Positions 6,643 to 46,062 of a DNA stretch of 64,000 nt are shown here, one piece after another. The notes beneath the pieces are model-generated. The model was not told where the DNA came from and searched no databases. It was given only the letters and a program-made list of their open reading frames with translations. The first letter of the stretch is position 1. Each line of letters starts with the position of its first letter. The translations under genes were made by a program, and so were the position numbers. Origin of the DNA: an uncultured Rivularia sp. (GTDB taxonomy: Bacteria; Cyanobacteriota; Cyanobacteriia; Cyanobacteriales; Nostocaceae); the NCBI GenBank assembly GCA_963665115.1, contig OY762007.1, forward strand, positions 1,664,001 to 1,728,000, given 5' to 3'.

Positions 6643-6718
6643 GTTATTCAAATTGGTTGGATTAGAAAAATTGGTCTTTGTGACAGACCAAACACTATAA
6701 AAGCAAATCGAATTTATC

Positions 6719-19673: not shown

Positions 19674-20432
19674 ATGCTGTTTAAGATACCTAGATTCAAA
19701 TTAAATATGCAAAATAGTTTTTTTCAAGCAGCGAAGAGGTTTTTTAACCCAGAAACCTTAATTCCCTTTTTGATCGGGTCAATTGTTTTGTCCTTACTGG
19801 GTAACGCTATTAGTGACATATTAAAAGCAATTGTTGGCGATACTTTACAAGACGCAGTTAAAATTGCGATCGGCTCAGTATTAATTTTTATATTTTGTGT
19901 TTGGTTAGTAGCGAAATCATTAACGACAAATTTAGCACCGATAGATTTGGGTAAATCTTCTCCTCGCAAACATAAGGGGTTGATATTATTAGTCAGTCGA
20001 GAAGAACCCTGTCGCACAGCAATAGAACATCATCTACCCGAACTAAAATATTGCTGGTTGATTTGTTCTTCCCAAACTATCAACGTTGCGAAAAAACTAC
20101 AGCAAGACTTTCCTAAATTGATAATTCCCGAACCATTAGTAATCAAAGATGTGTATGACCCGGTAGAATTTTCTCAAGTGGTTATGAATGTTTACGATTG
20201 TCTTCCTAGCCGTTGGACAAAAGATGATATTATCGCTGACTTCACGGGAATGACTGCTCAGGGTAGTGTGGGGATGACAATTGCATCTTTATTAATGCGA
20301 CAATCAAAGTTGCAGTATACTCCAGCAGAATCAAGAGATGGTAAACCTACTGGAAATTCTTTAAATCCGATTGAAATTGCGTTAACGGAAAGAAGATTGG
20401 CACGGAGCAAGAAATTGAAAGAAGTTTATTGA
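19674..20432 (+). CDS. Transmembrane CARF-domain protein (Cam1-like putative type III effector)
   Basis: Two N-terminal hydrophobic helices; KGLILLVS, WLICS and IIADFTGMT..SVG CARF-like motifs; next to the cmr locus. Confidence 0.7.
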   Translation: MLFKIPRFKLNMQNSFFQAAKRFFNPETLIPFLIGSIVLSLLGNAISDILKAIVGDTLQDAVKIAIGSVLIFIFCVWLVAKSLTTNLAPIDLGKSSPRKHKGLILLVSREEPCRTAIEHHLPELKYCWLICSSQTINVAKKLQQDFPKLIIPEPLVIKDVYDPVEFSQVVMNVYDCLPSRWTKDDIIADFTGMTAQGSVGMTIASLLMRQSKLQYTPAESRDGKPTGNSLNPIEIALTERRLARSKKLKEVY

Positions 20433-21401: not shown

Positions 21402-22535
21402 TTAAGGATTATTATTAACTTCAGGTTCTAAACCATAACGACGTAATAGTAATTTACCTTGAATAATAGTATTACTAACCCGTATACCTTGAGTTATGCG
21501 AAAATGGTCAATATTTCCTTTATTTGTATATTTATCATACTGTATTCCCCCATGTTGTCTAAGAATCGCAGTATCACCATTTGACTCATTTAATAAACGG
21601 GTAACATTAGCTAAAGTTTCTTGTAATTTAACCCGCTTATGTTTTTCCCTCACTCTGTTGTAATCAGCCCTAAAACTATCTTGATATTCCAATTTAGAAA
21701 AAGAAATTAAATCCCCAGCTAGTAAATCATCTTTACACTGATTCCAAATTAGCTGTCCCCAGGTTGAAAGGGTCATTTTTCCATCAACTTCACCTAACAT
21801 AGTTTCGGGAATTCCGTTAGTTTCCTGGGGAGAAAGTCCCGCACCAGCGTTTAGTAAAGCTAGCTGCATTGTGTAAGGTTTAAATAAGGAAGTATCTACA
21901 GAAATTGGTAAGCGAGGAATAGTAATTAAATCGGATTTTTGACCTTCAAATATGTAAATTATTTCATCTGCGTAAAACATTCCAATGGTGTTGAGATAAC
22001 CTTGCAAACTCTTGAAACTACCCACCAAATTAAAACAAATTTTGTATTTGCTTTCCCTTAAGGGTGGAATAGTTTCTTGCAGCCAAACAATTAAGTCATC
22101 AATTCCCACAGAAAAATCTTCGGTACTCGCAGTAGAAAGTCCGCTGGGAGCATAAATACTAGTATTAGTTAAACCTTGTTTCCTGAGAAATGTTTCGACA
22201 ATTTGAGCGGTATTTTTACCTTGAATTGTATCGGTAGCAATCAGAAAATGGTAATCCTCTTTTCCTTGACTTAAATCTTCTTGGTAGACACCGTAAATAC
22301 CGTTTAATTCCGCACTTGCACGACGAATTTGGGGAATATTAACATTTTCTAACTGTACATTCGCTCTTTGTTCGAGATTATAAATAATCTTTTTGACATT
22401 TTCTGGTGTTTCTTTTTCCTTAAAATTGGCTGCATCGCGCAGTTGTGCATACCAATCTTTTTCTTCGGGGTTAGCGCGATTAATTTGATTTGTTAGTAAG
22501 CTGGTGCCAATGGTAGATAAAATTACGCGACGCAT
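21402..22535 (-). CDS. CARF (APE2256/SSO1393-type)-RelE fusion, Cami1-like effector
   Basis: STIGTSLL, SAELNG, TDT..G, NLVGSFK, YIFE motifs plus a ~95 aa RelE-like C-terminus (HFRITQGIRV). Confidence 0.75.
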   Translation of the reverse strand: MRRVILSTIGTSLLTNQINRANPEEKDWYAQLRDAANFKEKETPENVKKIIYNLEQRANVQLENVNIPQIRRASAELNGIYGVYQEDLSQGKEDYHFLIATDTIQGKNTAQIVETFLRKQGLTNTSIYAPSGLSTASTEDFSVGIDDLIVWLQETIPPLRESKYKICFNLVGSFKSLQGYLNTIGMFYADEIIYIFEGQKSDLITIPRLPISVDTSLFKPYTMQLALLNAGAGLSPQETNGIPETMLGEVDGKMTLSTWGQLIWNQCKDDLLAGDLISFSKLEYQDSFRADYNRVREKHKRVKLQETLANVTRLLNESNGDTAILRQHGGIQYDKYTNKGNIDHFRITQGIRVSNTIIQGKLLLRRYGLEPEVNNNP

Positions 22536-22614: not shown

Positions 22615-24333
22615 TTAATTCGGTTCCCTTCCCCAAGATAGTTTTAATTCTTTTTCTTTCAAGTTTTTAATAAATGTTTGTAGTTGATTACCTTGCGATT
22701 GATGTTTCCAAGGAGTGCGATCGCCATGAAATATGGTTACAATTTCTAAGTATTGATTGTTTGACACGGGCAACATCCGATGCCAAACTGAACTGAAGAA
22801 TTTTGGTCTTGTATCACCTTGATTTTTACCACCGATTGCTGGAGTAGTCTTGAAAGTATCGTCATGAAATAATTTTACAGCTTGAGATGTATTTACAACC
22901 TTACTGTAAACTGTTACTCGGTTAGGATGCCAAGCTTCTCGCCAACTCATTGCTGATGGCGGTTTTGTACCCAGTCGATTCTTGCAAAGTTCGTATAAAT
23001 TATCCAAAAATTTATTTAACTCTTTCGTTGTGTTTATATTTGCCCAACTAGAGTTTAAGCATTCCCAATGACAACCAATATGTAAACCCTGAGCTAACTT
23101 GGGATAATTATGATAAAACTTTTTATGGGACACTCTGCGCCAAGATTTACCAAATCCACCCATAATAAAGCCGAATTTAAGTACCTGTTCGATAAAGCGG
23201 AGGTCTTCTCTAGATGGCACATTTATGTGTAATATTCCCTCGGTATCATAAGTCGGAGTAAGGTCGTTTTGGTTATAATTTTCCTCACATACTTCCCAGA
23301 AAATATTTACAATCCCGGGGTTTTCTGAACTACCAAAAAACTTATTTTCTACTTGTTTAATCACTTTTTCATGATTACAAACTCCACCCAAAAGTCGTTT
23401 GATATGACCTCTTAAAGTTGCTTTAAATACGTTAGGACGAAATTCTGGCTCATCACTACGTAAAAGCGGACTAACACCAAATCCATTAAAACGAATATTT
23501 AAAGGATACTCAGGTATGCTAGGAGGTTGTGAAGGAATATGACCACCCAATCCATAGCCGGTACTGGTTTTACCTCCTAAACCATTTTGTAATGCTTTCA
23601 ATAAAATTTCTTCAATTTCCTTCCAGTTAATATCGGTGTTACTGCAACTTAATTCAAAAGTACAGGTTGGTTGATAAAAACTAATACTTGCAAGGGCTTT
23701 AGGAGAACCTCCTCCTTCCACCTGACGTGTTTGTTGAGGATGAATTACATCAACAATGCGGTAACGAGTTTCAGAAATAACCTGCCTATTTCGACGGATT
23801 GAAACTTGTTTCGTACCAGCCCAATCTCCTATGGGATAAGCACGGTGAAAACGCAAAATTCCCGGAACTAATTCCTTATTGTCTCCACAGTATTTAATAG
23901 CTTGCTGTGGAGTACAAGCACGTCTAAATAATCCTTTAATACTGCTACCTGGAATAAAAGGGATTCCATTCTTTCCTAAAGCTGGACGGAGAATACTATC
24001 TTGACCGCAATTACTAAATAATCTAAACGGAAACTCTATTTTGATACGATAAGTTTTATCAACGATGCCAAGTTTTGGTTCTTTATGTTGATAACGCGGT
24101 TGGTTATTATTGTTGGAATTAGGATATACCCATTCATCACGCCATTGTTCTAAATCTTCGTTATTACCAGCGAATTGTAGACTACAACGTCCCGAAACTT
24201 GAGCGCGATACATCATTGGTATCTGCTCTATATTCATATTTAATTGAGAATTATTTCTCGATTGTTCTTGTTCAGTTGTACTTTCTGTTTCAATACCGAA
24301 TTGTTTCGCTACTTCACTAAGTCCTCGAATCAT
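22615..24333 (-). CDS. cmr6: Cmr6-Cmr1 fusion RAMP protein
   Basis: Two RAMP modules: GIPFIPGSSIKG..GLGGKTSTGYG and FRPNVFKATLRGH..GGFGKSWRR. Confidence 0.8.
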   Translation of the reverse strand: MIRGLSEVAKQFGIETESTTEQEQSRNNSQLNMNIEQIPMMYRAQVSGRCSLQFAGNNEDLEQWRDEWVYPNSNNNNQPRYQHKEPKLGIVDKTYRIKIEFPFRLFSNCGQDSILRPALGKNGIPFIPGSSIKGLFRRACTPQQAIKYCGDNKELVPGILRFHRAYPIGDWAGTKQVSIRRNRQVISETRYRIVDVIHPQQTRQVEGGGSPKALASISFYQPTCTFELSCSNTDINWKEIEEILLKALQNGLGGKTSTGYGLGGHIPSQPPSIPEYPLNIRFNGFGVSPLLRSDEPEFRPNVFKATLRGHIKRLLGGVCNHEKVIKQVENKFFGSSENPGIVNIFWEVCEENYNQNDLTPTYDTEGILHINVPSREDLRFIEQVLKFGFIMGGFGKSWRRVSHKKFYHNYPKLAQGLHIGCHWECLNSSWANINTTKELNKFLDNLYELCKNRLGTKPPSAMSWREAWHPNRVTVYSKVVNTSQAVKLFHDDTFKTTPAIGGKNQGDTRPKFFSSVWHRMLPVSNNQYLEIVTIFHGDRTPWKHQSQGNQLQTFIKNLKEKELKLSWGREPN

Positions 24334-24346
24334 AATATTTTATTTG

Positions 24347-24871
24347 CTAGTAATTGTGATTATCATAATTATCAGAACTCTTAATTTTATAACGTTGAGT
24401 CCACCAAACCAAAGCATCACATAATTGAGTCAATACCATTAAAGCAATGCGTTGTTGTTCGGGTGGCATTGACCAAATTTCTTTCGCCATTGCTTGGATA
24501 TTTCTAGTTTCTTCGCGCTGTTTTTTTTCTTTGATAGCTTTGAGCCTTTTTTTATCATTCTCTTTCTTTTCTGACTCTGTTAAATAATAAGTTACATCAT
24601 CATTTGGTAAAACAACATCAGCATTTTGTAAGATTTCTTCTAGTGTATCCCAGACGGATTTCCAATATTTACCTTTCGCTGGTTTCTCTCTACCAAGTCT
24701 GAGATGTTCTCCCCAAAACCTTTCTAAACCATATGCAACTGACATTCGCATTTTGTGCGATTCATTTAAGATGTCTTTAGCATCTCGATTTTGTAATACT
24801 AAAGTTTGAGCATAATGGTCAAGTTTATAAGGTTGCCAACCTCTTGTTTTGTTTGTTTGTGCTTGTGTCAT
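24347..24871 (-). CDS. cmr5: Cmr5/Cas11-like small helical subunit
   Basis: Positional call (between cmr4 and cmr6); helical, with YGLERFWGE and LVWWTQRYK. Confidence 0.6.
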   Translation of the reverse strand: MTQAQTNKTRGWQPYKLDHYAQTLVLQNRDAKDILNESHKMRMSVAYGLERFWGEHLRLGREKPAKGKYWKSVWDTLEEILQNADVVLPNDDVTYYLTESEKKENDKKRLKAIKEKKQREETRNIQAMAKEIWSMPPEQQRIALMVLTQLCDALVWWTQRYKIKSSDNYDNHNY

Positions 24872-24877
24872 AATTAA

Positions 24878-25729
24878 TTACTGCTGAGTAGATTTTAAAG
24901 TTACTTGAGTACGACCGAATCCGACTGATTCTAAACCGCCAAAATAGAATTCTTGGGTTTCATTCATATTGGAATCATTAATAAATTCTTCCCATTTTAC
25001 TGGCTTCTCATTGAAGGTTTTCCGTAATGCTATAGGAAAAGTCATAATCGTCCCTTCTGGTAAAGCTTCAACATTAAAAAATGCCCCACCTTTAGCTTTT
25101 TTCTGATTGTCTTCAAGCGCAACTCTACTTTGACGATAAAGTGCCATATCGTGAATCATTGAAATCTCTGTATCATCAACTACTAACAGTAAGTAACGTT
25201 CGGCATCACTAATCTCAGAAGGCATATATTCTTTGAGCTTTTCGTCTTTCTTTTCAAGCGGCAAAAATCCCAAATTAAAAAATAAAGTCTTGCTTGAAGT
25301 TTTGCCGTAATAACTATACGGTTCAAAATTATGTGGTGGTTTACCAGTTAATTTTTGATAACGCTTGAGTAAAGTTGGGCAAGAAACTCTTACTACTGGT
25401 TGATTAGGACAATAGACAGGAAGCCACAAAATGGAAGCATACTCAAGCTTGACTATACCTTCAGTAGTGGTATCCTCTTTACCCAGTTTCGCATCTTTTC
25501 CATACCAATATTCAACTGGGCTAAGTCCTTCTCGAACTTGTTCCTCACCCATTGTTTGCAACCGCATATCGCAGCGAAATCTCCCCCGAATCGAACTACC
25601 AGGAATAATCCCTGTTCTAGTAAATTGGTCGCGAAAAATTAAATTAAGATTACCCGTTTCTTCTCCAGCGCTAGCTCCAGTATACAGAGGTGCCAAAGTT
25701 TCAATGATGCCGTAGGCTTTGTGATACAT
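24878..25729 (-). CDS. cmr4: Cmr4 (Cas7-like RAMP)
   Basis: ETLAPLYTGA, IIPGSSIRG, EALPEGT, FGGLESVGFG. Confidence 0.9.
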   Translation of the reverse strand: MYHKAYGIIETLAPLYTGASAGEETGNLNLIFRDQFTRTGIIPGSSIRGRFRCDMRLQTMGEEQVREGLSPVEYWYGKDAKLGKEDTTTEGIVKLEYASILWLPVYCPNQPVVRVSCPTLLKRYQKLTGKPPHNFEPYSYYGKTSSKTLFFNLGFLPLEKKDEKLKEYMPSEISDAERYLLLVVDDTEISMIHDMALYRQSRVALEDNQKKAKGGAFFNVEALPEGTIMTFPIALRKTFNEKPVKWEEFINDSNMNETQEFYFGGLESVGFGRTQVTLKSTQQ

Positions 25730-25772
25730 TTTAGTTGTTAGTTGTTAGTGGTTAGTTGTTATTTATTACTCA

Positions 25773-28614
<2,842 letters not shown>

Positions 28615-28754: not shown

Positions 28755-29747
28755 TTAACATTTAGTCAAATGAATCAAAACATCAGCTAATGCTTGTACC
28801 ATCGCACGAGTTGATAAATTTTCTCCTCGCTCTAATCGATGCACGCTACCAGTAAGCAGAGATGTGCTTTCTAACAATTCGCTTGTATTCTCTTGCCAAC
28901 CGTTGCTAAACAAAACTTCGTCTTTGACAGCATTTAGCTGACTGTGAATTTTGGCAATGACTTTTAATCCTAATGTTTGACAAAAATCTTCCCACTCTGC
29001 AAATTTACTCGTGTCTCCCGACAAAATAACTGCGTGGGTTGCTGGTTGCATAATTAGCTTGTTTTCGTCGGTAATTTTGCCACCAACGTCAATGATATTT
29101 ATTAATTGGTTCACACTCTTTACCCATTGTGCAGCTTCTATCGCAAATTTTGGGGTCACAGGTGCTTTATTTCTGCGTTTGCAATCCTTTGCTACTTGCT
29201 CGTTATTTTCGTAAGCTTCTTGATGCCAAGACCCTTCTCCATCAGGGCAAGCCGTGATTATATATGGATAAGGTGCCCCAAAATTACTGAAAATAGCTCT
29301 TTTTAAGCCATCCCTTAAGCATGATTTTCCCGATTGTGGAGGACCGCATAAAACGACTCTGATGGGAGAAAAACTTTCTTCTGGAAATTCTTGGGTTTCA
29401 ATCAAATCTCCTACTTGATATTCTGTGGAGCCGTGTACGGAGGTAACAATATAAACTTTGTGCCTGATAGCACCATCTGCTGTACTAATTTTACTACTCA
29501 GTTTGGGGTCGAGTACGGCGACTGCTTCGTATAAATGTACGAGTTTATGGGAAAGAATATAAGCAACGGGAACTGATTGCGGCCCATCAATTAAGATGCG
29601 CTTGCCTCCGGAAATCTCACCAGAATCAATCATTTGGTTGATTCGAGAGAGTGCGTCTTTAGCAATGCGATCGCCTTGTGCGGGAACGTTACGATTAAAA
29701 CCAACGTGCAATACGTCTCCTTCTAATTTAATTTGGTAGCTTTGCAT
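28755..29747 (-). CDS. csx3: Csx3 (Crn3 ring nuclease-like) fused to a P-loop NTPase
   Basis: N-terminal ILIDGP..LSH..AVLDPKL..VTSVH; C-terminal GPPQSGKS, ACPDGEGSW, IIDVGGK. Confidence 0.8.
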   Translation of the reverse strand: MQSYQIKLEGDVLHVGFNRNVPAQGDRIAKDALSRINQMIDSGEISGGKRILIDGPQSVPVAYILSHKLVHLYEAVAVLDPKLSSKISTADGAIRHKVYIVTSVHGSTEYQVGDLIETQEFPEESFSPIRVVLCGPPQSGKSCLRDGLKRAIFSNFGAPYPYIITACPDGEGSWHQEAYENNEQVAKDCKRRNKAPVTPKFAIEAAQWVKSVNQLINIIDVGGKITDENKLIMQPATHAVILSGDTSKFAEWEDFCQTLGLKVIAKIHSQLNAVKDEVLFSNGWQENTSELLESTSLLTGSVHRLERGENLSTRAMVQALADVLIHLTKC

Positions 29748-29956: not shown

Positions 29957-31403
29957 TTACCAAACAATAAAATCCGAATTATCAAAATCTTGCTCTTCAA
30001 AATCTTGACTTTCAAAATCCGAATTTTGAACGACTTGCTCCGAACTATTCAACCCACAAAAATAACAATCATCCGTCTGTAAATATGTGGTATCAGTTTT
30101 ACGCCATTCGCTATTGGGAAACTCATAAATCCAATCAATACCAGAATCCACATTCATAAAACCGCTTACTATACCGTGAATCACTCCCACAGCGGTACTT
30201 GCACAAATACTATTCAACCAAAATACTGAGGGGGTCATTTACTCCTTCTAAATAACCCGCATTTTCAGCCATATGATTAATTTCTGATGGTGCAGACTCT
30301 AAAGCAGCGCGTTGTAAGTTGATGATGTTACCGCACATTAAACACCAATCACCACCCACAGGAGGAATTGTGATTCTACAGTACATTCGCGGTGTTCCAT
30401 CTGATTTCACGTCGATGTGAGTCCCCAAGCATACCAAAGGACGCATATACTTTAATGCAACTTCTTGAGCAGTTTTGCGAGAAAGATGATTATCAGTAGC
30501 AACTATAATCAAATCGCAATTAGCTATTTCTTGCGTGGCTGTTTCGGCTTCAATAGCAGTCGATATGGTTTTGACATGAGAACCACAAGCGTAAATTTTT
30601 TTAATCAAATGCTTGACATAATGGACTTTGTGCCAATTCTGCTCGACCATTTCTTGAGTTGCACCCGTCATCCGATTTAAGTTGACTTGCTCTAATTTAT
30701 CGGGGTCAACCAGCACCCAATTTTTGACACCCAGACGACCTAATAATTCCGCAAAAATAGAACCAATTCCACCACAACCGATTAATCCTACTTTCAATTG
30801 ATTCAAAGTTTTTTGATTGGTTTCCCCAAATGTTTTTTGACGAGCGAACATTAAATTAGGGTTGTCAAAAATATTTTCAGAATCAGAGATTTCAAATAAT
30901 GAATTACAAAAATCAACCTGCTGAAATTCTCTTCCCTTCCTATCCCATATCCGAAACTTACAATTATCTAAGCCTTCATCAAACACACCCGAAACCAAAC
31001 GGGGTTTTTCAGGGAAATGAGATGCAATAAACTTTGCATATTCTGATTCATAACGGTTATCAACATAAGAAAACTCAGGAATACCCACACCAGCATGAGT
31101 ATGAATATGGACTATATCCAAACCGGGGAATAGATGATTTTCTAACAGATAAGAATGGAAACGTTGAGTTAAAACCAAACCATCGGTAGATTGATGTTCG
31201 TAGCATTCAGAAGTTGGAACAACCCAAGTCTTGGGAATATATCTAACTTTGCGTTTTGAAACCTGATGACGCTGACAAAATAGAAAACCAATTACTTCTT
31301 CGTTGAACATCCGAGAAGAGAGCATCGATTTTTGAAAATCAGACCACATTTTTGGTGGTACATGAAGAGAAAATTTAGTATTCATGGTTAGTTGATGATC
31401 CAC
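29957..31403 (-). CDS. JAB/MPN peptidase - ThiF/E1 fusion (one +1 frameshift near 30232)
   Basis: EEVIGF..HIHTH..FSYVD (JAB); GCGGIGS, VDPD..NLNR, ATDN..SR, CLMC and CYFC (E1). Removing one C gives NDPSVFWLN. Confidence 0.88.
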
Positions 31404-31458
31404 ACCCGACCGGTGAAAGTTGTTAGTTGATAGTTGTTAGTTGATAGTTTAGATTTAT

Positions 31459-31527
31459 GGTGCGTGACGGTAATTTCAAATGATTTTGTTACAAGTGATA
31501 AGTTATCGTAACCGTCACACACCCTAC
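31459..31527. repeat. GTAGGGTG..ACCGTCACGCACC REP-like element (copies 45225-45292, 48140-48210, partial 11918-11932)
   Basis: Shared termini and internal GTGACGG/CCGTCAC inverted repeat; the three full copies abut heptamer arrays. Confidence 0.75.
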
Positions 31528-31569
31528 AAAAATAAATATCCTACTTCTTACTTATTACTTCTTACTTAA

Positions 31570-32055
31570 TTAATCGTCACTATTAATCGCATGACGTGCT
31601 GTTACAAACAATGTCGTGAGATTGTGACCGTTTTCCGCATTATTACTAGGTCGCCAAGAATTCAACCAAACATCGTGATTAAATCCTCCTCCCAATCCGA
31701 CACAATACCAATACCATCCTTGTTCGCTTAAAAATGGGGCACCGTAATAGCTTTGTCTGGTAAAATGATGGTCGCCTTCTCCTACAGTATTCCAAGGATA
31801 ATTTAGATAGCAGCCAATCGGAGGAAGTCGAGGGTAATCTGACGGTAATAGAAACAAAACATCAGTATTGGAAACCTTAAATTTTTGAGAAGATAAAGGC
31901 ATTCCCTTAATCAAAACAGCAGTATATCTAGTATCACCAACAGTCTTGCTACCAACGATTATATTTTTAGCAACTTTTTCTAATAGCTTAAGTTCTTCTA
32001 TAATTCGCGAACTAGGTTTAAATCCCGATTTATCTTTACTAATTGTAATTGCCAT
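31570..32055 (-). CDS. Prokaryotic E2/UBC-like protein
   Basis: VLFLLPSDYPRLPP (UBC-type YP..PP), WYWYC, W.P...NL.T motifs; lies between Ubl and E1. Confidence 0.8.
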   Translation of the reverse strand: MAITISKDKSGFKPSSRIIEELKLLEKVAKNIIVGSKTVGDTRYTAVLIKGMPLSSQKFKVSNTDVLFLLPSDYPRLPPIGCYLNYPWNTVGEGDHHFTRQSYYGAPFLSEQGWYWYCVGLGGGFNHDVWLNSWRPSNNAENGHNLTTLFVTARHAINSDD

Positions 32056-32094
32056 ATCTCACCTCATTACTTCTTACTTTTTACTTCTTACTTT

Positions 32095-32301
32095 TTACTT
32101 TTTACTTCCTTTCACAATCTTCGGTACAGTCCAAACCTTTGAACCTTCCTTCAATGCTTCATTACTTTTCAACGGACGAGTACCACCGAAACCTTCTTCC
32201 ATCACATCATCTTGACCAATTTCTGGTAGTTTTTTTCGTAATTCTTCAACAGTTGCACCTTTGGGTAAATCGACTAATTTACCGTTAACAATTGCTCTCA
32301 T
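32095..32301 (-). CDS. Ubiquitin-like beta-grasp (ThiS/MoaD-fold) protein
   Basis: 68 aa; IVNGK.V.LP.GATV.EL and L.EG.KV..VP..VKG with an SKK tail; AGGA SD upstream. Confidence 0.8.
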   Translation of the reverse strand: MRAIVNGKLVDLPKGATVEELRKKLPEIGQDDVMEEGFGGTRPLKSNEALKEGSKVWTVPKIVKGSKK

Positions 32302-32473
32302 TTAATTTCCTCGCTTTGTTCTAATTATTTGGTTAATGGTAATTTAAAATCTCCCTCAGACTATAAGTCTGGGGCTACAGAAACCAAGTCCACCTGCGTG
32401 GACTATTATTATTTGAAAGATATTTTCTGGTTCCCAGGTTCTACCTGGGAATTAGTGTTTGAAGGCTCTGCCT

Positions 32474-32821
32474 TCAGTCCGCAGAGAATGGTGCAATATA
32501 TGAGTATACTTGTTTTGGAATCTGGCTATTGTCATCTTTTTGTTGATTATTCATACCAGAAATAGACCATACAAAAAGTAACGCAATAATGCTGCCTATC
32601 TTAATAAATGATATTTGTTTTGATTGCTTTGATGTCAATTCTTCAAGAAAACCTATTCGCTGTTCGAGTTTTTGCAAATATTGTAAATTATCTTGACTGC
32701 TAATGTGAGTTAATTGAGATTGTAGATACTCACAACGTCGATTGATATACTCAATATTGTGCGTTATTTCATCAAATTGATTTAGTTTTTGATTGGTTAG
32801 CTTCCCGTTTACTGTTTCCAT
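32474..32821 (-). CDS. Coiled-coil protein with one transmembrane helix
   Basis: Heptad-rich N-terminus, IGSIIALLFVWSISG TM segment, GGAG SD. Confidence 0.6.
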   Translation of the reverse strand: METVNGKLTNQKLNQFDEITHNIEYINRRCEYLQSQLTHISSQDNLQYLQKLEQRIGFLEELTSKQSKQISFIKIGSIIALLFVWSISGMNNQQKDDNSQIPKQVYSYIAPFSAD

Positions 32822-32863
32822 AAATAACTCCCTTGATTTTTTATTTATTTCAACTATGTTTAC

Positions 32864-33439
32864 TCATGCATCAAAAATATTTGCATGACCAATTCGATGA
32901 AAATTCTCATTAGAATTATGTGGGTCAAATTCATCAAATACCTCAGTTAAATCCACCACGCTATTAGCTGAATTCTTTAACTCGCTTCCTAAAGATTGTT
33001 CGACTGAAGCAACCTCAACTCTTATTCCTCTTCTTCTTAATTTTTGTGCTAAATAAGCAAAATCCGAATCACCCGTCACCAAAACCACAATATCTGGTTT
33101 AATTTCTAAAGCTAATTCCATCGCGTCTATTGCCATCACTACATCAACATTATTTTCATAACCATCTCCTTTGGCTTTACCTTCTTTTGTAACAATTAAA
33201 AATCCATTACTCTTAGCCCAATAAATAAATTTTTCTTTGCTTTTTCGCTGCTCTTCAAATCTATCTTTAGCAGGGGGTAGACCAAAATAAATCACCATTT
33301 CGATTAGTTCTCTACCTTCTTTGGGGTCAGCTAAATAATCCCGCATTTTATGCCAGTTTATTCTACGATTAAAGCTTTGTGCTGCCATAAAAGCGTTATC
33401 ACCATCAGCTATAATCATGACTCGATGAAGATTTCTCAT
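32864..33439 (-). CDS. NYN (LabA/DUF88, PIN-like) domain RNase
   Basis: IADGDN, NVDVVMAIDA, LVTGDSDF, S.EL...A motifs. Confidence 0.9.
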   Translation of the reverse strand: MRNLHRVMIIADGDNAFMAAQSFNRRINWHKMRDYLADPKEGRELIEMVIYFGLPPAKDRFEEQRKSKEKFIYWAKSNGFLIVTKEGKAKGDGYENNVDVVMAIDAMELALEIKPDIVVLVTGDSDFAYLAQKLRRRGIRVEVASVEQSLGSELKNSANSVVDLTEVFDEFDPHNSNENFHRIGHANIFDA

Positions 33440-33823: not shown

Positions 33824-34276
33824 ATGGATATCAATAAATCCTTACCTGTGAAGATTCAAGCTCATGAAGCAAATTTAATTCAAACTAAAAATGAAATTCA
33901 GAAGTTTATCAAAATGTCTGAGGGTTTATTGTTTGACCAAGTTGGGCTGGATGCTCTTATTGGAGCGATTCCTGGAGTCGGGGGAATGTATACGGGAATA
34001 ATGGGTATTTGGCTACTATTACAATCCTACAAAGTACGAGCCGAAAACGAGGATAAATTAATGATTGTTGCTCTTACTTTTGTTGATGTAGTGGTAGGAA
34101 TAGTCCCTATTTTTGGCGACATTATCGATACATTTTTACGAGTTCATGCTTTGAATGGTAGTCGCTTGATTACACATATCGATAAACAACTTTCATTAAT
34201 TGAAAATACTAGAGAACAGTTAAATCAAGGTTTTAATCCCGATTTAAGTTCGTTGGAAAACCTATTGCTCCGATAA
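33824..34276 (+). CDS. DUF4112 membrane protein
   Basis: GLDALIGAIPGVG and D.VVG.VP.FGD..D motifs. Confidence 0.8.
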   Translation: MDINKSLPVKIQAHEANLIQTKNEIQKFIKMSEGLLFDQVGLDALIGAIPGVGGMYTGIMGIWLLLQSYKVRAENEDKLMIVALTFVDVVVGIVPIFGDIIDTFLRVHALNGSRLITHIDKQLSLIENTREQLNQGFNPDLSSLENLLLR

Positions 34277-34330
34277 TTCTGAACTTGAAAATAACGCTTG
34301 CTTTATCTAACTAAAAAGGAAAATAGTCAA

Positions 34331-34984
34331 ATGAATAAGTTAATTGCAGGTATCGCAGCATTAGGTTTATGTTTCGTTTCTCCAGGTATTGCGAATTCCC
34401 AGCAGATTACTAGATTTGAGCATCAAGACGATACATACTATCACCAAAACTTAAATTCAAAAGGTGTTGCACGCTATAAATATAAAATACCTGCGAATAC
34501 TTTTGGAGTTTTCACTCTCAAAAATCACAGCGGGAGGTCAGATTTTGATATTTCTGTGTATGATTCTAGCAATGGACAATTACTATCTGAAGCAGATGAA
34601 TTGGGAACACAAACAGAGTTAGTTATTACACCATTTTTTACCCAGAATAAAGATGTAATTATTAAAGTAGTCAACTATGGTTCCCAAACATCTCGATACA
34701 AACTTTATGCAAATCATGTAAATCCTGCGACTAAATTTTTGATTGCATTAGCTGGTTTTCCTTTCTGTAGTTCAGCACAAAATGTTGACGATAGAATATC
34801 TTCGAGAGCATTTACAACTATGTCCTCAATTATTCAAGGTAACAGTTTTGGAGGTGTAGCTAAAGATGTTTTAATTAATGAAGTAACTATGGAAATGAAG
34901 AAACAATTTGGTTACGGATGTACGGGTGAAGTTATGGTTAATTGGGGTGTTTCTATGTTTAAAGGTATTCTTCGGAATTATTAA
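34331..34984 (+). CDS. Secreted protein with a PPC-like beta-sandwich domain
   Basis: Signal-peptide-like MNKLIAGIAALGLCFVSPGIA; DFDISVYD motif. Confidence 0.6.
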   Translation: MNKLIAGIAALGLCFVSPGIANSQQITRFEHQDDTYYHQNLNSKGVARYKYKIPANTFGVFTLKNHSGRSDFDISVYDSSNGQLLSEADELGTQTELVITPFFTQNKDVIIKVVNYGSQTSRYKLYANHVNPATKFLIALAGFPFCSSAQNVDDRISSRAFTTMSSIIQGNSFGGVAKDVLINEVTMEMKKQFGYGCTGEVMVNWGVSMFKGILRNY

Positions 34985-35381: not shown

Positions 35382-38300
35382 GTTTCCAACTAATCCGAAT
35401 TAACCCAATCGGTGGGGAAGTAAATTCTTTCTTTAAGGCTGGATTAAAGGAGAGTTTCCAACTAATCCGAATTAACCCAATCGGTGGGGAGTTCTCCAAT
35501 AACATCTAACTGCACTGTATAGTACAGTTTCCAACTAATCCGAATTAACCCAATCGGTGGGGCATACCCAATTAACGGGAATATATTGCCTGAATAAAGT
35601 TTCCAACTAATCCGAATTAACCCAATCGGTGGGGAAACTGTCGCAAGAAATGCTGCTTTTGCTCTTATTGAAAAGTTTCCAACTAATCCGAATTAACCCA
35701 ATCGGTGGGGTTTTGATGGAGACATTGAAATCACTGAAGGATACGAGTGTTTCCAACTAATCCGAATTAACCCAATCGGTGGGGTGGCTAAGTTCAATTC
35801 TATTCGCAGCATCTTTTGTTTCCAACTAATCCGAATTAACCCAATCGGTGGGGTTTTAACATCTAACTAAAAAACAAATTTGCTCGGTTTCCAACTAATC
35901 CGAATTAACCCAATCGGTGGGGAACTTTTTTAACGACAAGAACAACGCTGTTAAGGTTTCCAACTAATCCGAATTAACCCAATCGGTGGGGTATCCCTGC
36001 AAATTTTGTGGGGTGACTACGGACAAAAGTTTCCAACTAATCCGAATTAACCCAATCGGTGGGGTCGTTTCTTAAAGAACGAAAATAATCAAAAGAGAAT
36101 AGTTTCCAACTAATCCGAATTAACCCAATCGGTGGGGATTTCTTAAAAAGAAATCACATACACGCCAATTTATGTTTCCAACTAATCCGAATTAACCCAA
36201 TCGGTGGGGAAGAGAATCATTGAAAAGTTTGAAAATAACGAAAGTTTCCAACTAATCCGAATTAACCCAATCGGTGGGGGAGAATTAATTCTTCCAGCGA
36301 CAGAAATGGAAATGGATCGTTTCCAACTAATCCGAATTAACCCAATCGGTGGGGTAAGAGACAAGAAAGATATAGCGGAAGAAATTAATAAAGTTTCCAA
36401 CTAATCCGAATTAACCCAATCGGTGGGGTGTTCCCAGCAGTTTCAAACCCTAGTCTCTCGTAAAAAGTTTCCAACTAATCCGAATTAACCCAATCGGTGG
36501 GGTAATTTCAATTTTTCTGAGAAGTTAGAATCTGTTAGTTCGTTTCCAACTAATCCGAATTAACCCAATCGGTGGGGGTCGTTCTTCTGTAGGAAGAGGT
36601 ATTCCAGAATATAAAGTTTCCAACTAATCCGAATTAACCCAATCGGTGGGGTCTTTTCAGAAGCCAATAGATGTGATGGAATTCGTAATGTTTCCAACTA
36701 ATCCGAATTAACCCAATCGGTGGGGTGGTGTTCACCGTATGTTTTTAGTAAATAAAGCTAATGTTTCCAACTAATCCGAATTAACCCAATCGGTGGGGTT
36801 TGTTAGAAAAAAGCAGCCACGTGGTTGCTTTAGAGTTTCCAACTAATCCGAATTAACCCAATCGGTGGGGAAATATAATAGCGGTAAAACAGTTCCGAAT
36901 TCTAATGTTTCCAACTAATCCGAATTAACCCAATCGGTGGGGAATATGGTGAAATTTCTTTTACAGAAATTAAAGATAGTTTCCAACTAATCCGAATTAA
37001 CCCAATCGGTGGGGAAAGACAAAAGAGGAAGTCTTAGACTTTCCACCTAACGGTTTCCAACTAATCCGAATTAACCCAATCGGTGGGGGGCTGTTTGAAA
37101 AACAGCATAAGTCGAGGTCAGTTAGAGTTTCCAACTAATCCGAATTAACCCAATCGGTGGGGGGAGTCAGCCACTGAGGCGACTCCGGCAACTATAACGT
37201 TTCCAACTAATCCGAATTAACCCAATCGGTGGGGGCAGCCAGAATCAAAAAGGCAGCAAGTCCGGAGGATAGTTTCCAACTAATCCGAATTAACCCAATC
37301 GGTGGGGTTTTTTTGTTTATCAGTTGCATAGTCTGTATTCATCAGTTTCCAACTAATCCGAATTAACCCAATCGGTGGGGTACAACATTTTGGCAGTATT
37401 TACTACTGCGGCTTTTAGTTTCCAACTAATCCGAATTAACCCAATCGGTGGGGCGAAAGGATAACACGAGTAATATTGTATTATAGGGAAAGTTTCCAAC
37501 TAATCCGAATTAACCCAATCGGTGGGGTAACATTTTCGCTTTTTCCTAACTAGCTAACTTGTTTCCAACTAATCCGAATTAACCCAATCGGTGGGGATCT
37601 GGCGCTCCTGCAAGGACAGGATTAGTCAACATGTTTCCAACTAATCCGAATTAACCCAATCGGTGGGGGCTTTGGTTTTTGCGTCTTTGTTTCTTTCTAT
37701 TTTCGTTTCCAACTAATCCGAATTAACCCAATCGGTGGGGCAGTCAAAATGCGAATTGGAATGCGAACTGGAAAGTTTCCAACTAATCCGAATTAACCCA
37801 ATCGGTGGGAAAAAAATTTGCTAAGTGAATAACGAAAAAAACGAAAACAGTTTCCAACTAATCCGAATTAACCCAATCGGTGGGGGATTGTTTGTTTCAA
37901 TTTTACGAAGGCAAGTACAAGTAAGTTTCCAACTAATCCGAATTAACCCAATCGGTGGGGCACTTATCTTTAAGGATTTGCTAAAATGTCTAACGTTTCC
38001 AACTAATCCGAATTAACCCAATCGGTGGGGAAAAATTTGACGAAGCATTAGAATTAGCAAGAAAGTTTCCAACTAATCCGAATTAACCCAATCGGTGGGG
38101 AAAAAGATTCTGAAAAAGAGGCTCTTGCCTCTTTGAAGTTTCCAACTAATCCGAATTAACCCAATCGGTGGGGCTCACATTTTTCTGTCTTCATTTGATT
38201 AGCTAACGTTTCCAACTAATCCGAATTAACCCAATCGGTGGGGCGGTTTGTATTGATGGAAATTGTGCAGGATTTTAAAGTTTCCAACTAATCCGAATTA

Positions 38301-41300
38301 ACCCAATCGGTGGGGCAGAAGGGGAAAACATTTTCTTCTCTGAAAAAGAGAAAAAGTTTCCAACTAATCCGAATTAACCCAATCGGTGGGGGATCAAAAA
38401 GATTCTGAAAAAGAGGCTCTTGCCTCTTTGAGTTTCCAACTAATCCGAATTAACCCAATCGGTGGGGTTTTTCAATATATTTGTTAAATGCTGGCGGATA
38501 TTTAGGTTTCCAACTAATCCGAATTAACCCAATCGGTGGGGAATTCGTGGAATTGAAGTTTTAAAAAGCTACCGTTTCGTTTCCAACTAATCCGAATTAA
38601 CCCAATCGGTGGGGGTTCCCCGTTGTATTTACAGGAGGATTCACCAAGTTTCCAACTAATCCGAATTAACCCAATCGGTGGGGACAGTATTGAAAAAATC
38701 TCTAAGTCAGATATAAAAGTTTCCAACTAATCCGAATTAACCCAATCGGTGGGGGATAAATGTTTTCAAGATAGGAGGGTATTTCCAACGTTTCCAACTA
38801 ATCCGAATTAACCCAATCGGTGGGGCTGAAGAAAAAAAAGAAGAATGCGAACCTAAGGCACAGTTTCCAACTAATCCGAATTAACCCAATCGGTGGGGCA
38901 ATATTCAAAACATGGGTTTTGGTATTGGACAAAGAAAAAGTTTCCAACTAATCCGAATTAACCCAATCGGTGGGGAAACTGAAGAAGAAGTTGAAACTGA
39001 AGCTGAAGAAGAGTTTCCAACTAATCCGAATTAACCCAATCGGTGGGGCAAGGGGTCGTGATGTTGGCGTGCCTCACACACCTCAAGTTTCCAACTAATC
39101 CGAATTAACCCAATCGGTGGGGATTTCATCTATTTGCTTACTTAAAAGCAATGCATAGTTTCCAACTAATCCGAATTAACCCAATCGGTGGGGATTGGGC
39201 ATGAGAGATAACTGAGAGAACCACCAAGGTTTCCAACTAATCCGAATTAACCCAATCGGTGGGGAAACTTTATCTTTATTTTGGGGAATTCTGCTTTAAA
39301 GTTTCCAACTAATCCGAATTAACCCAATCGGTGGGGTGCAAAACCAGGTCAGCGAGGCTATGAACCTCCCAGTTTCCAACTAATCCGAATTAACCCAATC
39401 GGTGGGGAAAACTAAAAGGGAAGCATATAGTTGGCAGTAAAGTTTCCAACTAATCCGAATTAACCCAATCGGTGGGGAATACGACAATCGTAGGTTTGCA
39501 AACTATGCAGTTTCCAACTAATCCGAATTAACCCAATCGGTGGGGGTGAATTAGAAGCAATGGCTTCCGGTTCATCTGATTTGGTTTCCAACTAATCCGA
39601 ATTAACCCAATCGGTGGGGTCTAATAGTGGAAATGTAAGCATTAGCGGCAATAATAGTTTCCAACTAATCCGAATTAACCCAATCGGTGGGGTAGTGGAA
39701 ACGGAATGAATGTAACGCAAATTAACGTTTCCAACTAATCCGAATTAACCCAATCGGTGGGGCGACGGCTATAGCAGTAAAGTTTCATGGGGTACTTGTG
39801 TTTCCAACTAATCCGAATTAACCCAATCGGTGGGGAAGCACTGAGAACCAGTTCAAAAAGTTTGATACTAATGTTTCCAACTAATCCGAATTAACCCAAT
39901 CGGTGGGGTCCAACAAGATTACATTAATTAACCATGTAACAAAAGTTTCCAACTAATCCGAATTAACCCAATCGGTGGGGTAGATGAAAATAATCTAGCA
40001 CATCTTGCTATAATAATGTTTCCAACTAATCCGAATTAACCCAATCGGTGGGGATGGCACCTTAAGCCTGGTAAATCTGAATATTGGGTGTTTCCAACTA
40101 ATCCGAATTAACCCAATCGGTGGGGTGTTGAACTGGGGAGGTGTGTTGCTGCCAGTAAGGTTTCCAACTAATCCGAATTAACCCAATCGGTGGGGTAGAG
40201 ACGATGTAGTTTATTTTTTAAAGGATTGTTTCCAACTAATCCGAATTAACCCAATCGGTGGGGTTTCCTTTTGGGTAGGTTCTGAAAAGATAACATTCCA
40301 GGTTTCCAACTAATCCGAATTAACCCAATCGGTGGGGATGGGTAAATTAGGACATAGGGAAACCTGTGTTCAAGGTTTCCAACTAATCCGAATTAACCCA
40401 ATCGGTGGGGTGTAAGTAACATTAACTCCTATTAGTTTATTAATGTTTCCAACTAATCCGAATTAACCCAATCGGTGGGGACATGGTTAAAGAAGCTGAC
40501 GGTCGCTGCATGAACGTTTCCAACTAATCCGAATTAACCCAATCGGTGGGGTTGCTCATCATTACGTGAAAAAGTAACGGTGTGATAAGGTTTCCAACTA
40601 ATCCGAATTAACCCAATCGGTGGGGAAAGAGCAAGAGTTACAAGTCATGGTTTATAAGATAAAGTTTCCAACTAATCCGAATTAACCCAATCGGTGGGGG
40701 ATTGAAAGATATAAAGCAAAAAATTGAGTTAGTTGAAAGTTTCCAACTAATCCGAATTAACCCAATCGGTGGGGAAACGGAGCGAAAGTTCCAAAAGTCT
40801 TAGTTACTGGAGTTTCCAACTAATCCGAATTAACCCAATCGGTGGGGGTTCAAAACAGAATTGCGCTTTTTTCTTTGTTTTCGTTTCCAACTAATCCGAA
40901 TTAACCCAATCGGTGGGGAAACAAATTTATCTGAGAGCTACAAACGCATTTGTTTCCAACTAATCCGAATTAACCCAATCGGTGGGGTGGTTTAATTAGT
41001 CTAGCAGTAGCATCCGCACGTAATAGTGTTTCCAACTAATCCGAATTAACCCAATCGGTGGGGAAACAGCCCAAGAGACCTGAAAGACGACCAATAAACG
41101 TTTCCAACTAATCCGAATTAACCCAATCGGTGGGGTTGATGAAAATAAGATGTATAACTGCCAACGGAGTAGTTTCCAACTAATCCGAATTAACCCAATC
41201 GGTGGGGTTTTTATTGCTTCTTTCGTAATTTTCAATCATCAGTTCCGTTTCCAACTAATCCGAATTAACCCAATCGGTGGGGTTATTTTACAGAAAGACG

Positions 41301-41858
41301 GAGTAATCATAATGATTAGTTTCCAACTAATCCGAATTAACCCAATCGGTGGGGGAGAAAACTCTATAATGCTTGCAAAAGCATAATAGGTTTCCAACTA
41401 ATCCGAATTAACCCAATCGGTGGGGAGAGATTATATTTTCAATGGAAAGAAGGTTGGAGAGTTTCCAACTAATCCGAATTAACCCAATCGGTGGGGTTTT
41501 TTATAATAATAAAAACAACTATGGTTGATAAGTTTCCAACTAATCCGAATTAACCCAATCGGTGGGGGGTTCACGCTTCTTCTGCTCGTGCAGAAGAGGG
41601 AAAGTTTCCAACTAATCCGAATTAACCCAATCGGTGGGGCGTCTCTACGCAAATTGGTGTGTAAAATTCTTTAAGTTTCCAACTAATCCGAATTAACCCA
41701 ATCGGTGGGGGTCGCTTCTGTTTTGACTATTGCTCAGGTGAATATTGAAGTTTCCAACTAATCCGAATTAACCCAATCGGTGGGGTGCTAAGTTTTTCTA
41801 TGAAAGCTTAGAAAGCATTAAAGTTTCCAACTAATCCGAATTAACCCAATCGGTGGGG
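35382..41858 (-). CRISPR. CRISPR array, 90 repeats / 89 spacers by manual count; 36 nt repeat CCCCACCGATTGGGTTAATTCGGATTAGTTGGAAAC
   Basis: Near-identical repeats with ~32-41 nt spacers. The GAAAC 3' end and the leader next to cas2 give minus-strand orientation. Confidence 0.99.
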
Positions 41859-42077: not shown

Positions 42078-42353
42078 CTATATGACATAATAGTTTGGTG
42101 GCTCTTGAGGATGTTCGCTACCAATAGTTAACACTCTGGAAACAGCATCTTCAGAAATCCAATAAAATCGCACGTTATCCTCAGATGGCTTGACAATTTT
42201 TTTCGATTTCTCAAAAAGTTGTCGCATTTCATCTAAATTTAAAAAGCATTCAAATACAGAAAATTGTACTCTTTGCCCGTAACCCTCTAAAAAGTTAGAT
42301 AATTTAGTGCGTCTTTTATCATTAGGAATATCATATACAACAACCACTAACAT
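42078..42353 (-). CDS. cas2: Cas2
   Basis: VVVYDIPNDKRR..L..YG.RVQFSVFEC..D.VRFY. Confidence 0.97.
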   Translation of the reverse strand: MLVVVVYDIPNDKRRTKLSNFLEGYGQRVQFSVFECFLNLDEMRQLFEKSKKIVKPSEDNVRFYWISEDAVSRVLTIGSEHPQEPPNYYVI

Positions 42354-42400
42354 CTTCAATACTAAGAATTAATTTGTTACTTAAGTATAAGATGCTTTAC

Positions 42401-42449
42401 AAGTAATAAGTAAGAAGTAAAAAGTAAAAAGTAAGAAGTAAAAAGTAAT
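42401..42449 (+). repeat. Heptamer tandem array (AAGTAAN)x7
   Basis: Read directly; inverted relative to 42892-43036. Confidence 0.9.
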
Positions 42450-42456
42450 AAATTGG

Positions 42457-42828
42457 TTATTTTTGTTTAAGTTTATTAATCGAAGATACTAATACCTTAA
42501 TAATTTCTTCATTTTCTTGTATCATATTGTTGAATTTGGATTTCAGCACTAATTCTGATTTAATCATTATTTTTATCCAATAAAGAGTCTCATTAGCTTC
42601 TTTCAAGGCTATAGAATACTTGTTGATAAAATCTGCGTTTGATTGAGCATACTTAGCTTCCGAACAGTTTGCTCCTATTGATGTTCCACTTCTTAAAAAT
42701 TGCTTAGATAATACCTTACCCGCATCGTCAAAAGGTCTTTTATTTAGTTCGCAATAAGCTTTGATAACTCTGATAGCAAAATTTTCTGTTCTTTCTTGAA
42801 TACTAATATTACCCTTATGATTAACCAT
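42457..42828 (-). CDS. Four helix bundle protein (23S rRNA IVP / Avd-like family)
   Basis: QFLRSGTSIGAN..EA..AQS..DF..K..IALKEA.ET.YW signature. Confidence 0.92.
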   Translation of the reverse strand: MVNHKGNISIQERTENFAIRVIKAYCELNKRPFDDAGKVLSKQFLRSGTSIGANCSEAKYAQSNADFINKYSIALKEANETLYWIKIMIKSELVLKSKFNNMIQENEEIIKVLVSSINKLKQK

Positions 42829-42891
42829 GAATCAAAAATAATGCGACAACTTGTTATTAATCGAAAAACAATAAATAACGTATCAAGTATA

Positions 42892-43036
42892 ACTTCTTAC
42901 TTCTTACTTCTTACTTCTTACTCATTACTTCTTACTTCTTACTTCTTACTTCTTACTTCTTACTTCTTACTCATTACTTCTTACTTCTTACTTCTTACTT
43001 CTTACTCATTACTTCTTACTTCTTACTTCTTACTTC
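42892..43036 (+). repeat. Heptamer tandem array (ACTTCTT)x~20
   Basis: Read directly; begins at the cas1 stop codon. Confidence 0.92.
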
Positions 43037-44159: not shown

Positions 44160-44203
44160 ACCAGCAAAACCGTTAGTTATTGAATTAGAAGCTTCAGCTA
44201 ATT

Positions 44204-45166: not shown

Positions 45167-45384
45167 GATAAGTAAGAAGTAAGAAGTAAAAAGTAAGAAG
45201 TCAAAAGTAAGAAGTAATAAACTTGTAGGGTGCTGTACTTACGAGATAATTGTCGATTTTGACAATGAATTGTCGTCTTACCGTCACGCACCAATCAGTA
45301 TTTAGAAGTCAAAAGTAAGAGGTAAGAAGTAATTAATAATTGATAATTGTTCACTGCTTACTAATAACTGATAACTGTTCACTG

Positions 45385-45975: not shown

Positions 45976-46062
45976 ATTATTTAAAGGTCAAAGGTCAAAG
46001 GTTAAAGGTTAAAGGTAAATTAGAAAAGGTAACAAGGAGAAAAATAACTCCTAACTGTTCTC

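Follow-up and report, generated by a model that had tools for sequence, protein, structure and literature searches.

During our analysis of a 64,000-nt stretch of the genome of an uncultured Rivularia sp. (contig OY762007.1; the stretch is called the window here, all coordinates are positions in it, and the source genome is labelled G000) we examined five co-directional genes that an original prediction, made from the sequence alone, had described as a ubiquitin-like conjugation module within a type III-B CRISPR locus. ORF calling placed all five where they had been predicted, on the minus strand between the CRISPR array and csx3-cas10-cmr and in the order NYN, CC/TM, Ubl, E2 and JAB-E1, with intergenic gaps of 42, 172, 39, and 184 nt and a further 209 nt from JAB-E1 to csx3. 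The first gene (32864-33439) encodes a 191-residue ribonuclease of the NYN/LabA family (PF01936, E 3.6e-29) and the second (32474-32821) a 115-residue protein with a coiled coil and a single transmembrane segment (CC/TM), which had no Pfam match and was recognized by the PADLOC profile PDLC01177, named "CorA-like", with an E-value of 1e-38 over the profile's 117 positions. These are followed by a small ubiquitin-like protein (Ubl; 32095-32301) with a 65-residue core, a 3-residue tail and a ThiS-like match (PF14453, E 5e-4) that fell below the cut-off; an E2 of the Prok-E2_E type with a BubB-like UBC fold (31570-32055; PF14462, E 6e-6); and a fusion of a JAB peptidase to a BubCD-like E1 (29957-31385; ThiF PF00899, E 1e-26) that is split in the present assembly. 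The NYN gene starts 1,942 nt from the final array repeat, and two genes on the opposite strand lie in that interval; the module is between the array and csx3 as claimed, but NYN is not the immediate neighbor of the array.

Searching GTDB genomes with the E2 identified 73 homologous loci (designated by L numbers), nearly all of them cyanobacterial and with kin among them that are not independent of one another. The module order was conserved, with Ubl in 72, JAB-E1 in 70 and CC/TM in 68 of the 73, and with NYN full-length in 64, partial in three, lost at contig ends in three and missing from three. An array, cas1/reverse transcriptase (RT)/cas2 or cmr genes accompanied the module in 63/73 loci, including all 42 of at least 15 kb, which bears out the recurrent linkage to type III CRISPR loci that had been predicted; the ten loci with no CRISPR genes were 2.7-14.4 kb long, and four of these carried csx3, WYL or CARF-RelE. 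A stricter array detector was positive in 54/73 loci and in none of nine control loci associated with BubE, where no cas match was found either; for comparison, 5.6% of G000 is no more than 10 kb away from a repeat of array type. Among 400 cyanobacterial genomes drawn evenly there was a strong E2 match in seven; seven loci examined from six of these genomes plus genome G038 (one duplicating L027) comprised six clear CRISPR loci and one with cas fragments only. Among the 42 long loci, adaptation genes were present in 35, arrays in 39 and cmr genes in 31, the other 11 having no cmr gene within the flank. Distances between homologs of E1 and E2 correlated with those of Cas1, RT and Cas2 (rho 0.76-0.83), less with Cas10 (0.50-0.58) and hardly at all with Cmr4 (0.02-0.08), in comparisons that comprised the 12-14 loci holding all genes and in which common ancestry and physical linkage are confounders. 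The effector partners also varied, being III-B, III-B with a long Cas10, or III-D (L147 has III-D, and L118 a different Cas10). Judged by gene order and distance, the effector complex is apparently exchanged while the module remains with the adaptation genes and array, E1 and E2 tracking RT-Cas1 and not Cmr. That the module stays with RT-Cas1 while Cmr varies argues against Cmr as the substrate, and both the Cmr4 correlation and the long loci without cmr disfavor the original suggestion that the module tags the Cmr complex.

The sequence motifs quoted in the original prediction were all found (JAB E30/H95/H97/S106/D109, GCGG, NLNR, CLMC...GY...P, CYFC and, in E2, WYWYC). The best PDB sequence match to JAB-E1 was Citrobacter BubCD (9EA4, E 8e-17 to 4e-16) over residues 29-399; the JAB residues E30/H95/H97/D109 are conserved, and the fusion has two CxxC zinc pairs. 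E1 crossover residue Tyr378 (codon 30252-30254) aligns with BubCD Y370, is present in 64/64 close homologs, none of which has a cysteine in the crossover loop, and is invariant in 57 sequences of a wide set reaching down to 24% identity, so that an E1 crossover lacking cysteine alongside an E2 with WYWYC was seen as described. We also considered C319 and C394 as catalytic cysteines of E1 and rejected both, as they lie outside the crossover loop and in columns that are not conserved in the wide alignment. In E2, Cys118 (codon 31702-31704) occupies the position of the BubB catalytic serine: a profile alignment via cyanobacterial BubB to PDB 9EAE paired Cys118 with Ser333, Gly120 with His335 and Ile80 with Asp299. 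Cys118 was invariant in 62 E2 sequences down to 23% identity, a set made up of 55 of 74 representatives (fragments and one repeat protein were excluded) plus seven close ones. A structure model from these 62 sequences (predicted local distance difference test, pLDDT, 88) had BubB 9EAV as its best fold match (Z 12.8, root-mean-square deviation 2.4, 122 residues aligned; the next match had Z 9.1); Foldseek returned no match to this model at E ≤0.001, though BubB ranked first. This model replaced an earlier one built from 32 close homologs, which had a pLDDT of 62 around the active site and weak UBC matches. Mean column identity of E2 was 80% (alignment A1), and an alignment-based search (A5) found no E2 relative in viral contigs.

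The Ubl core ends in PKIVKG, with Gly65 encoded at 32107-32109 and followed by the tail SKK. Gly65 was present in 42/42 sequences; among 72 homologs, 41 end right after the glycine and 31 carry a tail. Besides the split forms there are also Ubl-E2 fusions, with their junction at VKG-M. The variable tails and the fusions would explain the presence of JAB. Pfam and PADLOC matched neither CARF nor SAVED domains in the five module proteins, which implies no direct input from cyclic oligoadenylate (cOA).

Because E1 is interrupted in the assembly, the original prediction had worried that a frameshift at 30232 truncates it. The frameshift (+1) is due to one extra G in a run of five (30230-30234, plus strand), eight codons past the crossover tyrosine, and if true would leave E1 without its second zinc pair and the last part of its adenylation domain. 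The extra G is kept in the contigs of sequencing run X1 and absent from those of X2 and X3, which differ in no other letter, and from those of X4 and X5; X1-X4 belong to one study, possibly the source of the window assembly, and are not independent evidence. At the equivalent place L001 has a run of four C, and the relative G019 has an intact 475-residue E1. Since two of three runs of this organism do not have the additional G, we judge the break likely to be a sequencing error, and otherwise a subclone mutation. There are two further +1 frameshifts in G runs of the window, in cas10 (27930), where the extra G is absent in 3/3 runs, and in cmr3 (25978), where it is absent in 2/3 and in one contig of the third; as the reads mostly lack all three, homopolymer errors are the likely reason why genes appear broken in this assembly.

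NYN appears to be a core member of the module. Its acidic active-site residues D12, D99, D124 and D126 are kept over 40 homologs, and it has a conserved C-terminal tail, RIG...(I/V)FD, with RIG in the tail of 57/64. We collected 34 distant loci from metagenomes, with E2 identity down to about 30%, by a search pattern of which the Cys motif formed part; 14 of the 34 were annotated, and most others were short. NYN was directly upstream in 22/24 distant loci outside the cyanobacterial clade that had enough flank, as against 0/9 BubE control loci. In a predicted complex of JAB-E1 (residues 1-445), E2 and NYN, NYN scored 0.62, with 0.67 for a control in which E1 was replaced and 0.00 for controls in which NYN was replaced, and we used these scores neither for nor against NYN binding. 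In about 20/73 loci (e.g., L007:7542-8498) the interval from array to module holds a second NYN gene; it is divergent and encodes about 320 residues with an N-terminal hydrophobic segment and a coiled coil (PADLOC PDLC01154, E 8e-166). It is absent from the window, its place being occupied by the two plus-strand genes noted above (33824-34984), a DUF4112 gene (33824-34276, PF13430) and a 228-residue ORF (34298-34984), a lineage-specific pair found in 6/73 homologous loci (L001-L006).

The contexts of the distant loci fell into several kinds. Some are insertions into type III-D operons, where the module occupies the opposite strand, with cas6 to one side of it and TM-CARF or SAVED genes to the other (L155, L157, L162, L165; L156 shows cas6 and TM-CARF only, and L158 is a repeat of L157). 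A four-gene core, NYN-Ubl-E2-JAB/E1, is carried by relaxase-T4CP-integrase elements (L161 and L172; L163 is without NYN) and lies beside HerA, AAA or type I restriction-modification (RM) genes in L114, L115, and L117, and no cas match was found in the scanned flanks (10 kb or less) of these island and mobile-element loci. The core is thus found in defense and mobile contexts without CRISPR and, going by its neighborhoods, is apparently a free-standing system occurring also where the examined flanks hold no cas genes. Its catalytic residues are invariant across the cyanobacterial, III-D, island and mobile clades. In an E1 tree the cyanobacterial clade had the island group as its sister, and the III-D clade joined the mobile-element rows. 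CRISPR-linked E1s thereby fell in two clades (cyanobacterial, and III-D L155, L157, L162, and L165), and a single clade was rejected with p-AU 4e-84, in a tree of 19 rows (LG+G4) that omits L097, L099, L153, L179, and most cyanobacterial rows and has a long-branch warning at the outgroup. Such a pattern would reflect either two recruitments by CRISPR or one old link lost twice. In two of the islands with no cas match, AAA ATPase genes are located upstream of NYN (L115:2425-4149 and L117:5805-7568), and a possible role for these ATPases is as an unfoldase for tagged proteins.

The CC/TM protein is variable except at its start, M-x-T-[VI]-N-G-K-L, with N5/G6/K7 in 68/69 sequences; it has a hydrophobic 19-mer in 61/61. 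The Ubl starts M-R-A-[IV]-[VI]-N-G-K-L in 42/42, and among 10,221 ORFs of G000 only three have NGKL in their first 12 residues, two of them being CC/TM and Ubl. BLASTP gave no alignment between the two proteins, the shared NGKL depending on motif counts only, and a protein atlas search for CC/TM gave only leads scoring under 0.9. Our hypothesis is that CC/TM may be a membrane-tethered copy of the first hairpin of Ubl that acts as a docking site, as a decoy or as a lysine acceptor; the NGKL lysine sits at the position of ubiquitin Lys11. We rejected CC/TM as a CorA Mg2+ channel or SAM-AMP effector, since it has 115 residues, one hydrophobic stretch and no Pfam CorA match at E 0.01, whereas a CorA channel has a large cytosolic domain and two transmembrane helices. 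Ubls with coiled coils have been described, in a text whose examined part does not use the word membrane (Gong et al., 10.1101/2024.11.21.623966). A gene for an HtpX/M48 membrane protease lies beside the module or the WYL gene in 15/73 loci (e.g., L010:12289-13317), and this protease could remove or process the CC/TM protein.

The association of these genes with CRISPR is already known: the five-gene set was catalogued as a CRISPR-linked system in 2023 (Altae-Tran et al. 2023, PMC10910872, Table S3 row 162 and Fig. 6D legend, among the parts consulted). The catalogue's representative contig JAAUYB010070855 is our L140, which has NYN-CC/TM-Ubl-E2-JAB/E1 between RT-cas1-cas2 and the array, with a 161-residue E2 at 3245-3730 and with 82% (NYN), 88% (Ubl), 73% (E2) and 60% (E1) identity to our reference set. 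What the catalogue calls CorA is the 115-residue, single-TM coiled-coil protein described here, the label matching the PADLOC profile PDLC01177. As far as its main text and tables go, that paper gives the name only, with no chemistry, JAB, Bub link or test (PMC10910872), and the text of the Shmakov 2018 preprint, in the portion consulted, names NYN and CorA and not ubiquitin. Our literature search, made mostly without subscription papers, found no paper characterizing the module; the original statement that no characterized case is wired into CRISPR stands in that respect, but the association itself had been catalogued. The literature searched likewise contained no description of the proposed relay from Tyr to Cys, of NYN as a core member, of the second recruitment or of the hairpin mimic.

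Among known systems the module most resembles Type I Bub (6E.1), which consists of BubAB, BubCD and BubE in the accessible text of Ye et al. (10.1101/2024.11.21.623953). As described there, both have a JAB fused to an E1 of the homodimeric type with a crossover tyrosine and no crossover cysteine, an E2 of the Prok-E2_E fold (closest here to BubB), a Ubl that ends in glycine and is sometimes fused to E2, and no E3. They differ in that BubB has the oxyester set Ser333/His335/Asp299 where our E2 has Cys118/Gly120/Ile80, and in that bubE (DUF6527) is described in all Bub operons and is in none of the module loci; NYN as a core gene, the single small Ubl and the CRISPR context further set the module apart. 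PF20137 was not found in G000, and a BubE profile matched only the control loci L092-L100 and no module locus. Thus, while the module would by its residues work like Type I Bub, it lacks two defining features (the Ser-His-Asp E2 and bubE), and we have not filed it as a member but regard it as a probable sister family of Bub. Cyanobacteria, Rivularia among them, also have canonical Type I Bub operons of the Ser type (L092-L094), which include BubE and a divergent pair of HTH and peptidase regulators; no array or cas match was near these three. Bub pathways are described as running wholly through oxyesters in the sections of Ye et al. available to us (10.1101/2024.11.21.623953), so a sister family that keeps the E1 tyrosine and has an E2 cysteine would be a naturally occurring intermediate between Bub and ubiquitination by thioester, and its constant NYN partner, candidate membrane acceptor and CRISPR context would give concrete first targets for the question of what Bub-type systems modify.

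Other likenesses are more partial. With Bil (BilABCD) the module shares a Ubl, a Cys-type E2, JAB, E1 and the lack of an E3, but BilD is, in the available text of 10.1101/2024.11.21.623953, an IAD-AAD-CYS E1 with a catalytic cysteine and a separate JAB gene, unlike the single, JAB-fused adenylation domain with tyrosine seen here. The predicted resemblance to "Bub/Bil-type" systems accordingly held for Bub (BubCD as best match, Y370 and the BubB fold) and not for Bil, which neither E1 nor E2 resembles. A CRISPR-associated NYN ribonuclease is also known from a type III-B locus with RT-Cas1 in Bacteroides fragilis, where, in the part of the preprint available, it is proposed to trim CRISPR RNA (crRNA) and possibly to supply RNA protospacers; that locus, unlike ours, has Cas6, a true CorA and NrN, and the same text mentions no ubiquitin or ThiF (10.1101/2024.04.08.588522). 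As in Cap2/Cap3 of Type II CBASS, E1/E2/JAB functions are attached to nucleotide-signalling defense, with weak E1 similarity, but in Cap2 E2 is fused to E1 and conjugates the cyclase itself, and our module has a dedicated Ubl gene.

The module is real, conserved and probably intact. As its best explanation we tentatively favor a self-contained, Bub-related and NYN-linked conjugation unit with a likely role in defense against phage, whose tag would control the NYN ribonuclease and which type III loci would have adopted as a co-inherited innate arm and not as a modifier of Cmr. In the first step JAB would remove the residues that follow Gly65, as has been shown for BubCD and as the variable tails and Ubl-E2 fusions suggest; E1 would then adenylate Gly65 and take Ubl on Tyr378 as an aryl oxyester, given its alignment with Y370; and Ubl would pass to Cys118 of E2 as a thioester, unlike the serine oxyester of Bub, as the change from Ser-His-Asp to Cys-Gly-Ile suggests. 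Aryl esters can acylate thiols. In the least certain step, with no encoded E3, E2 itself would pick a target lysine, with NYN or a protein bound to it as the most likely carrier, and the modification would switch or localize RNA cleavage during infection. In cyanobacteria, CC/TM may anchor the reaction, or the tag, at the membrane.

Several points weigh against this explanation. The status of the loci called CRISPR-free depends on flanks of 10 kb or less, and the cyanobacterial module is always with CRISPR in long flanks and tracks RT-Cas1, which would suit a function specific to CRISPR better than simple co-location. Nor can modification of NYN be read from its conserved adjacency, and NYN may be a co-regulated helper only. 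The conservation of Cys118 is tested only by the HMM-derived set of 62 sequences, since the metagenome search pattern contained the cysteine, and E1 of G000 itself may be broken if run X1 is correct. Canonical Bub, moreover, is described as having no demonstrated phage phenotype in the accessible text of Ye et al. (10.1101/2024.11.21.623953).

Some of the same points recur in a reading that we consider possible but rather unlikely, in which the module serves RNA handling dedicated to CRISPR, NYN trimming crRNA or feeding RNA fragments to RT-Cas1 and conjugation licensing or localizing NYN. This would suit E1/E2 distances that follow Cas1, RT and Cas2 more than Cas10 or Cmr4, the excess of adaptation genes and arrays over cmr genes in long loci, an array that often directly precedes NYN, a locus without cas6, the back-to-back arrangement of the III-D clade with cas6, and the role proposed for the B. 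fragilis NYN (10.1101/2024.04.08.588522, as far as available); but the III-D loci examined showed no RT, the distance correlations among kin are confounded as stated above, and the presence of the core in flanks without cas genes indicates that its job was not CRISPR-only in origin. An innate defense like that of Bil, in which attachment of Ubl to a structural protein of the phage spoils virions while NYN and CC/TM are separate helpers, is in our judgment unlikely. Bil systems achieve this with no E3 (as summarized in the available text of 10.1101/2024.11.21.623953), a thioester on the E2 cysteine suits lysine targets, and the contexts include defense islands and mobile elements. Such an explanation leaves the retention of NYN in 22/24 distant loci, with none in BubE loci, unaccounted for; E1 and E2 resemble Bub and not Bil; and an E2 as highly conserved as this one would be unlike a surface chasing variable phage proteins. 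Doubtful to a like degree is a bolder combination, a ubiquitin-like pathway wired into type III immunity and recruited twice, in which a relay from Tyr oxyester to Cys thioester supplies a tag that switches an NYN feeding RT-Cas1 or maturing crRNA, with conjugates forming on a membrane anchor that mimics the Ubl hairpin (Lys7 as acceptor). If conjugation did control the supply of crRNA or RNA spacers, it would be a case of protein ubiquitination acting inside CRISPR immunity.

We regard it as improbable that the module tags Cas10/Cmr or cOA effectors and so primes or stops type III signalling, as Cap2 does for CD-NTases. The Cas10 GGDD is intact, csx3-cas10 is adjacent in many loci, and the association with type III was found twice; but Cmr4 is uncorrelated with E1/E2 and Cas10 is more weakly correlated than Cas1, the partners differ from locus to locus (III-B, long-Cas10 III-B, and III-D; L118, L147), and the long loci with no cmr in the flank carry the module all the same. 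Least probable, and hardly to be expected, is that no protein conjugation takes place, whether because the genes form a sulfur relay or an inactive passenger or because the module is a pseudogene in this strain. The Ubl does score as ThiS-like only, and run X1 retains the frameshift. Against this, the module has a JAB and an E2 with an invariant cysteine, its Ubl resembles that of Bub in having a terminal KG and either a cleavable tail or a fusion to E2, the locus maps show no sulfur-pathway neighbors, and E1 has at least 390 residues with all motifs in 63/73 loci.

Beyond the module, the window contains a CRISPR-Cas system of type III-B with RT-Cas1, in which cas10 with GGDD, cmr3-6, RT, cas1, cas2 and an array are all present. 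On the minus strand downstream of JAB-E1 are a Csx3-AAA fusion of the Crn3 ring-nuclease type (28755-29747; PADLOC PDLC01045, E 1e-113), the effector genes cas10, cmr3, cmr4, cmr5 and a 572-residue cmr6-like RAMP (22615-28575; from Pfam/NCBIfam, tblastn of intact relatives and reads), with the cas10 GGDD at 27548 and splits in cas10 and cmr3 at the G runs given above, and a CARF-RelE effector (21402-22535; PDLC01934, E 1.5e-150); a TM-CARF effector lies on the plus strand (19674-20432; PDLC01943, E 1e-119). On the other side are the array (35382-41858, minus strand, 89 exact 36-nt repeats, leader side taken as towards cas2) and a minus-strand adaptation and regulatory block of cas2, a 23S-IVP-like ORF, cas1, RT, HD and HTH-WYL (42078-47592). 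There is no cas6 in this locus, and there are three elsewhere in G000. The spacers had no match in a phage collection and only three 17-22-nt matches, near chance, in their own genome, and promoter and terminator scans scored no higher than shuffled sequence. RT and cas1 are separate ORFs in the window (43035-45166) and one 761-residue fusion in L003, split forms being common among homologs, and a three-repeat mini-array with the same repeat as the array of this locus lies 430 kb from it (G000:C1:1269479-1269649).

Some further variation was seen among the homologous loci. In L103, L118-L123, and L126 a second cas1 stands between array and NYN, besides the upstream RT-cas1-cas2. In several loci of Nostoc type (L026, L028, L031, L033, L067, and L071) a conserved, unannotated block (about 242, 144, 108, and 180 residues), whose genes had no Pfam or PADLOC match, separates the module from TM-CARF. 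E2 homologs with 78-84% identity are also carried by three cyanobacterial plasmids (CP150887.1, NZ_CP025929.1, and NZ_CP026682.1), which indicates that the locus can be mobile. Finally, the window has an unannotated gene pair (210 and 573 residues) at 6010-8437 whose homologs lie directly after JAB-E1 in L029 and L070, and a homolog of the 573-residue gene is found in L030 and L068 as well.

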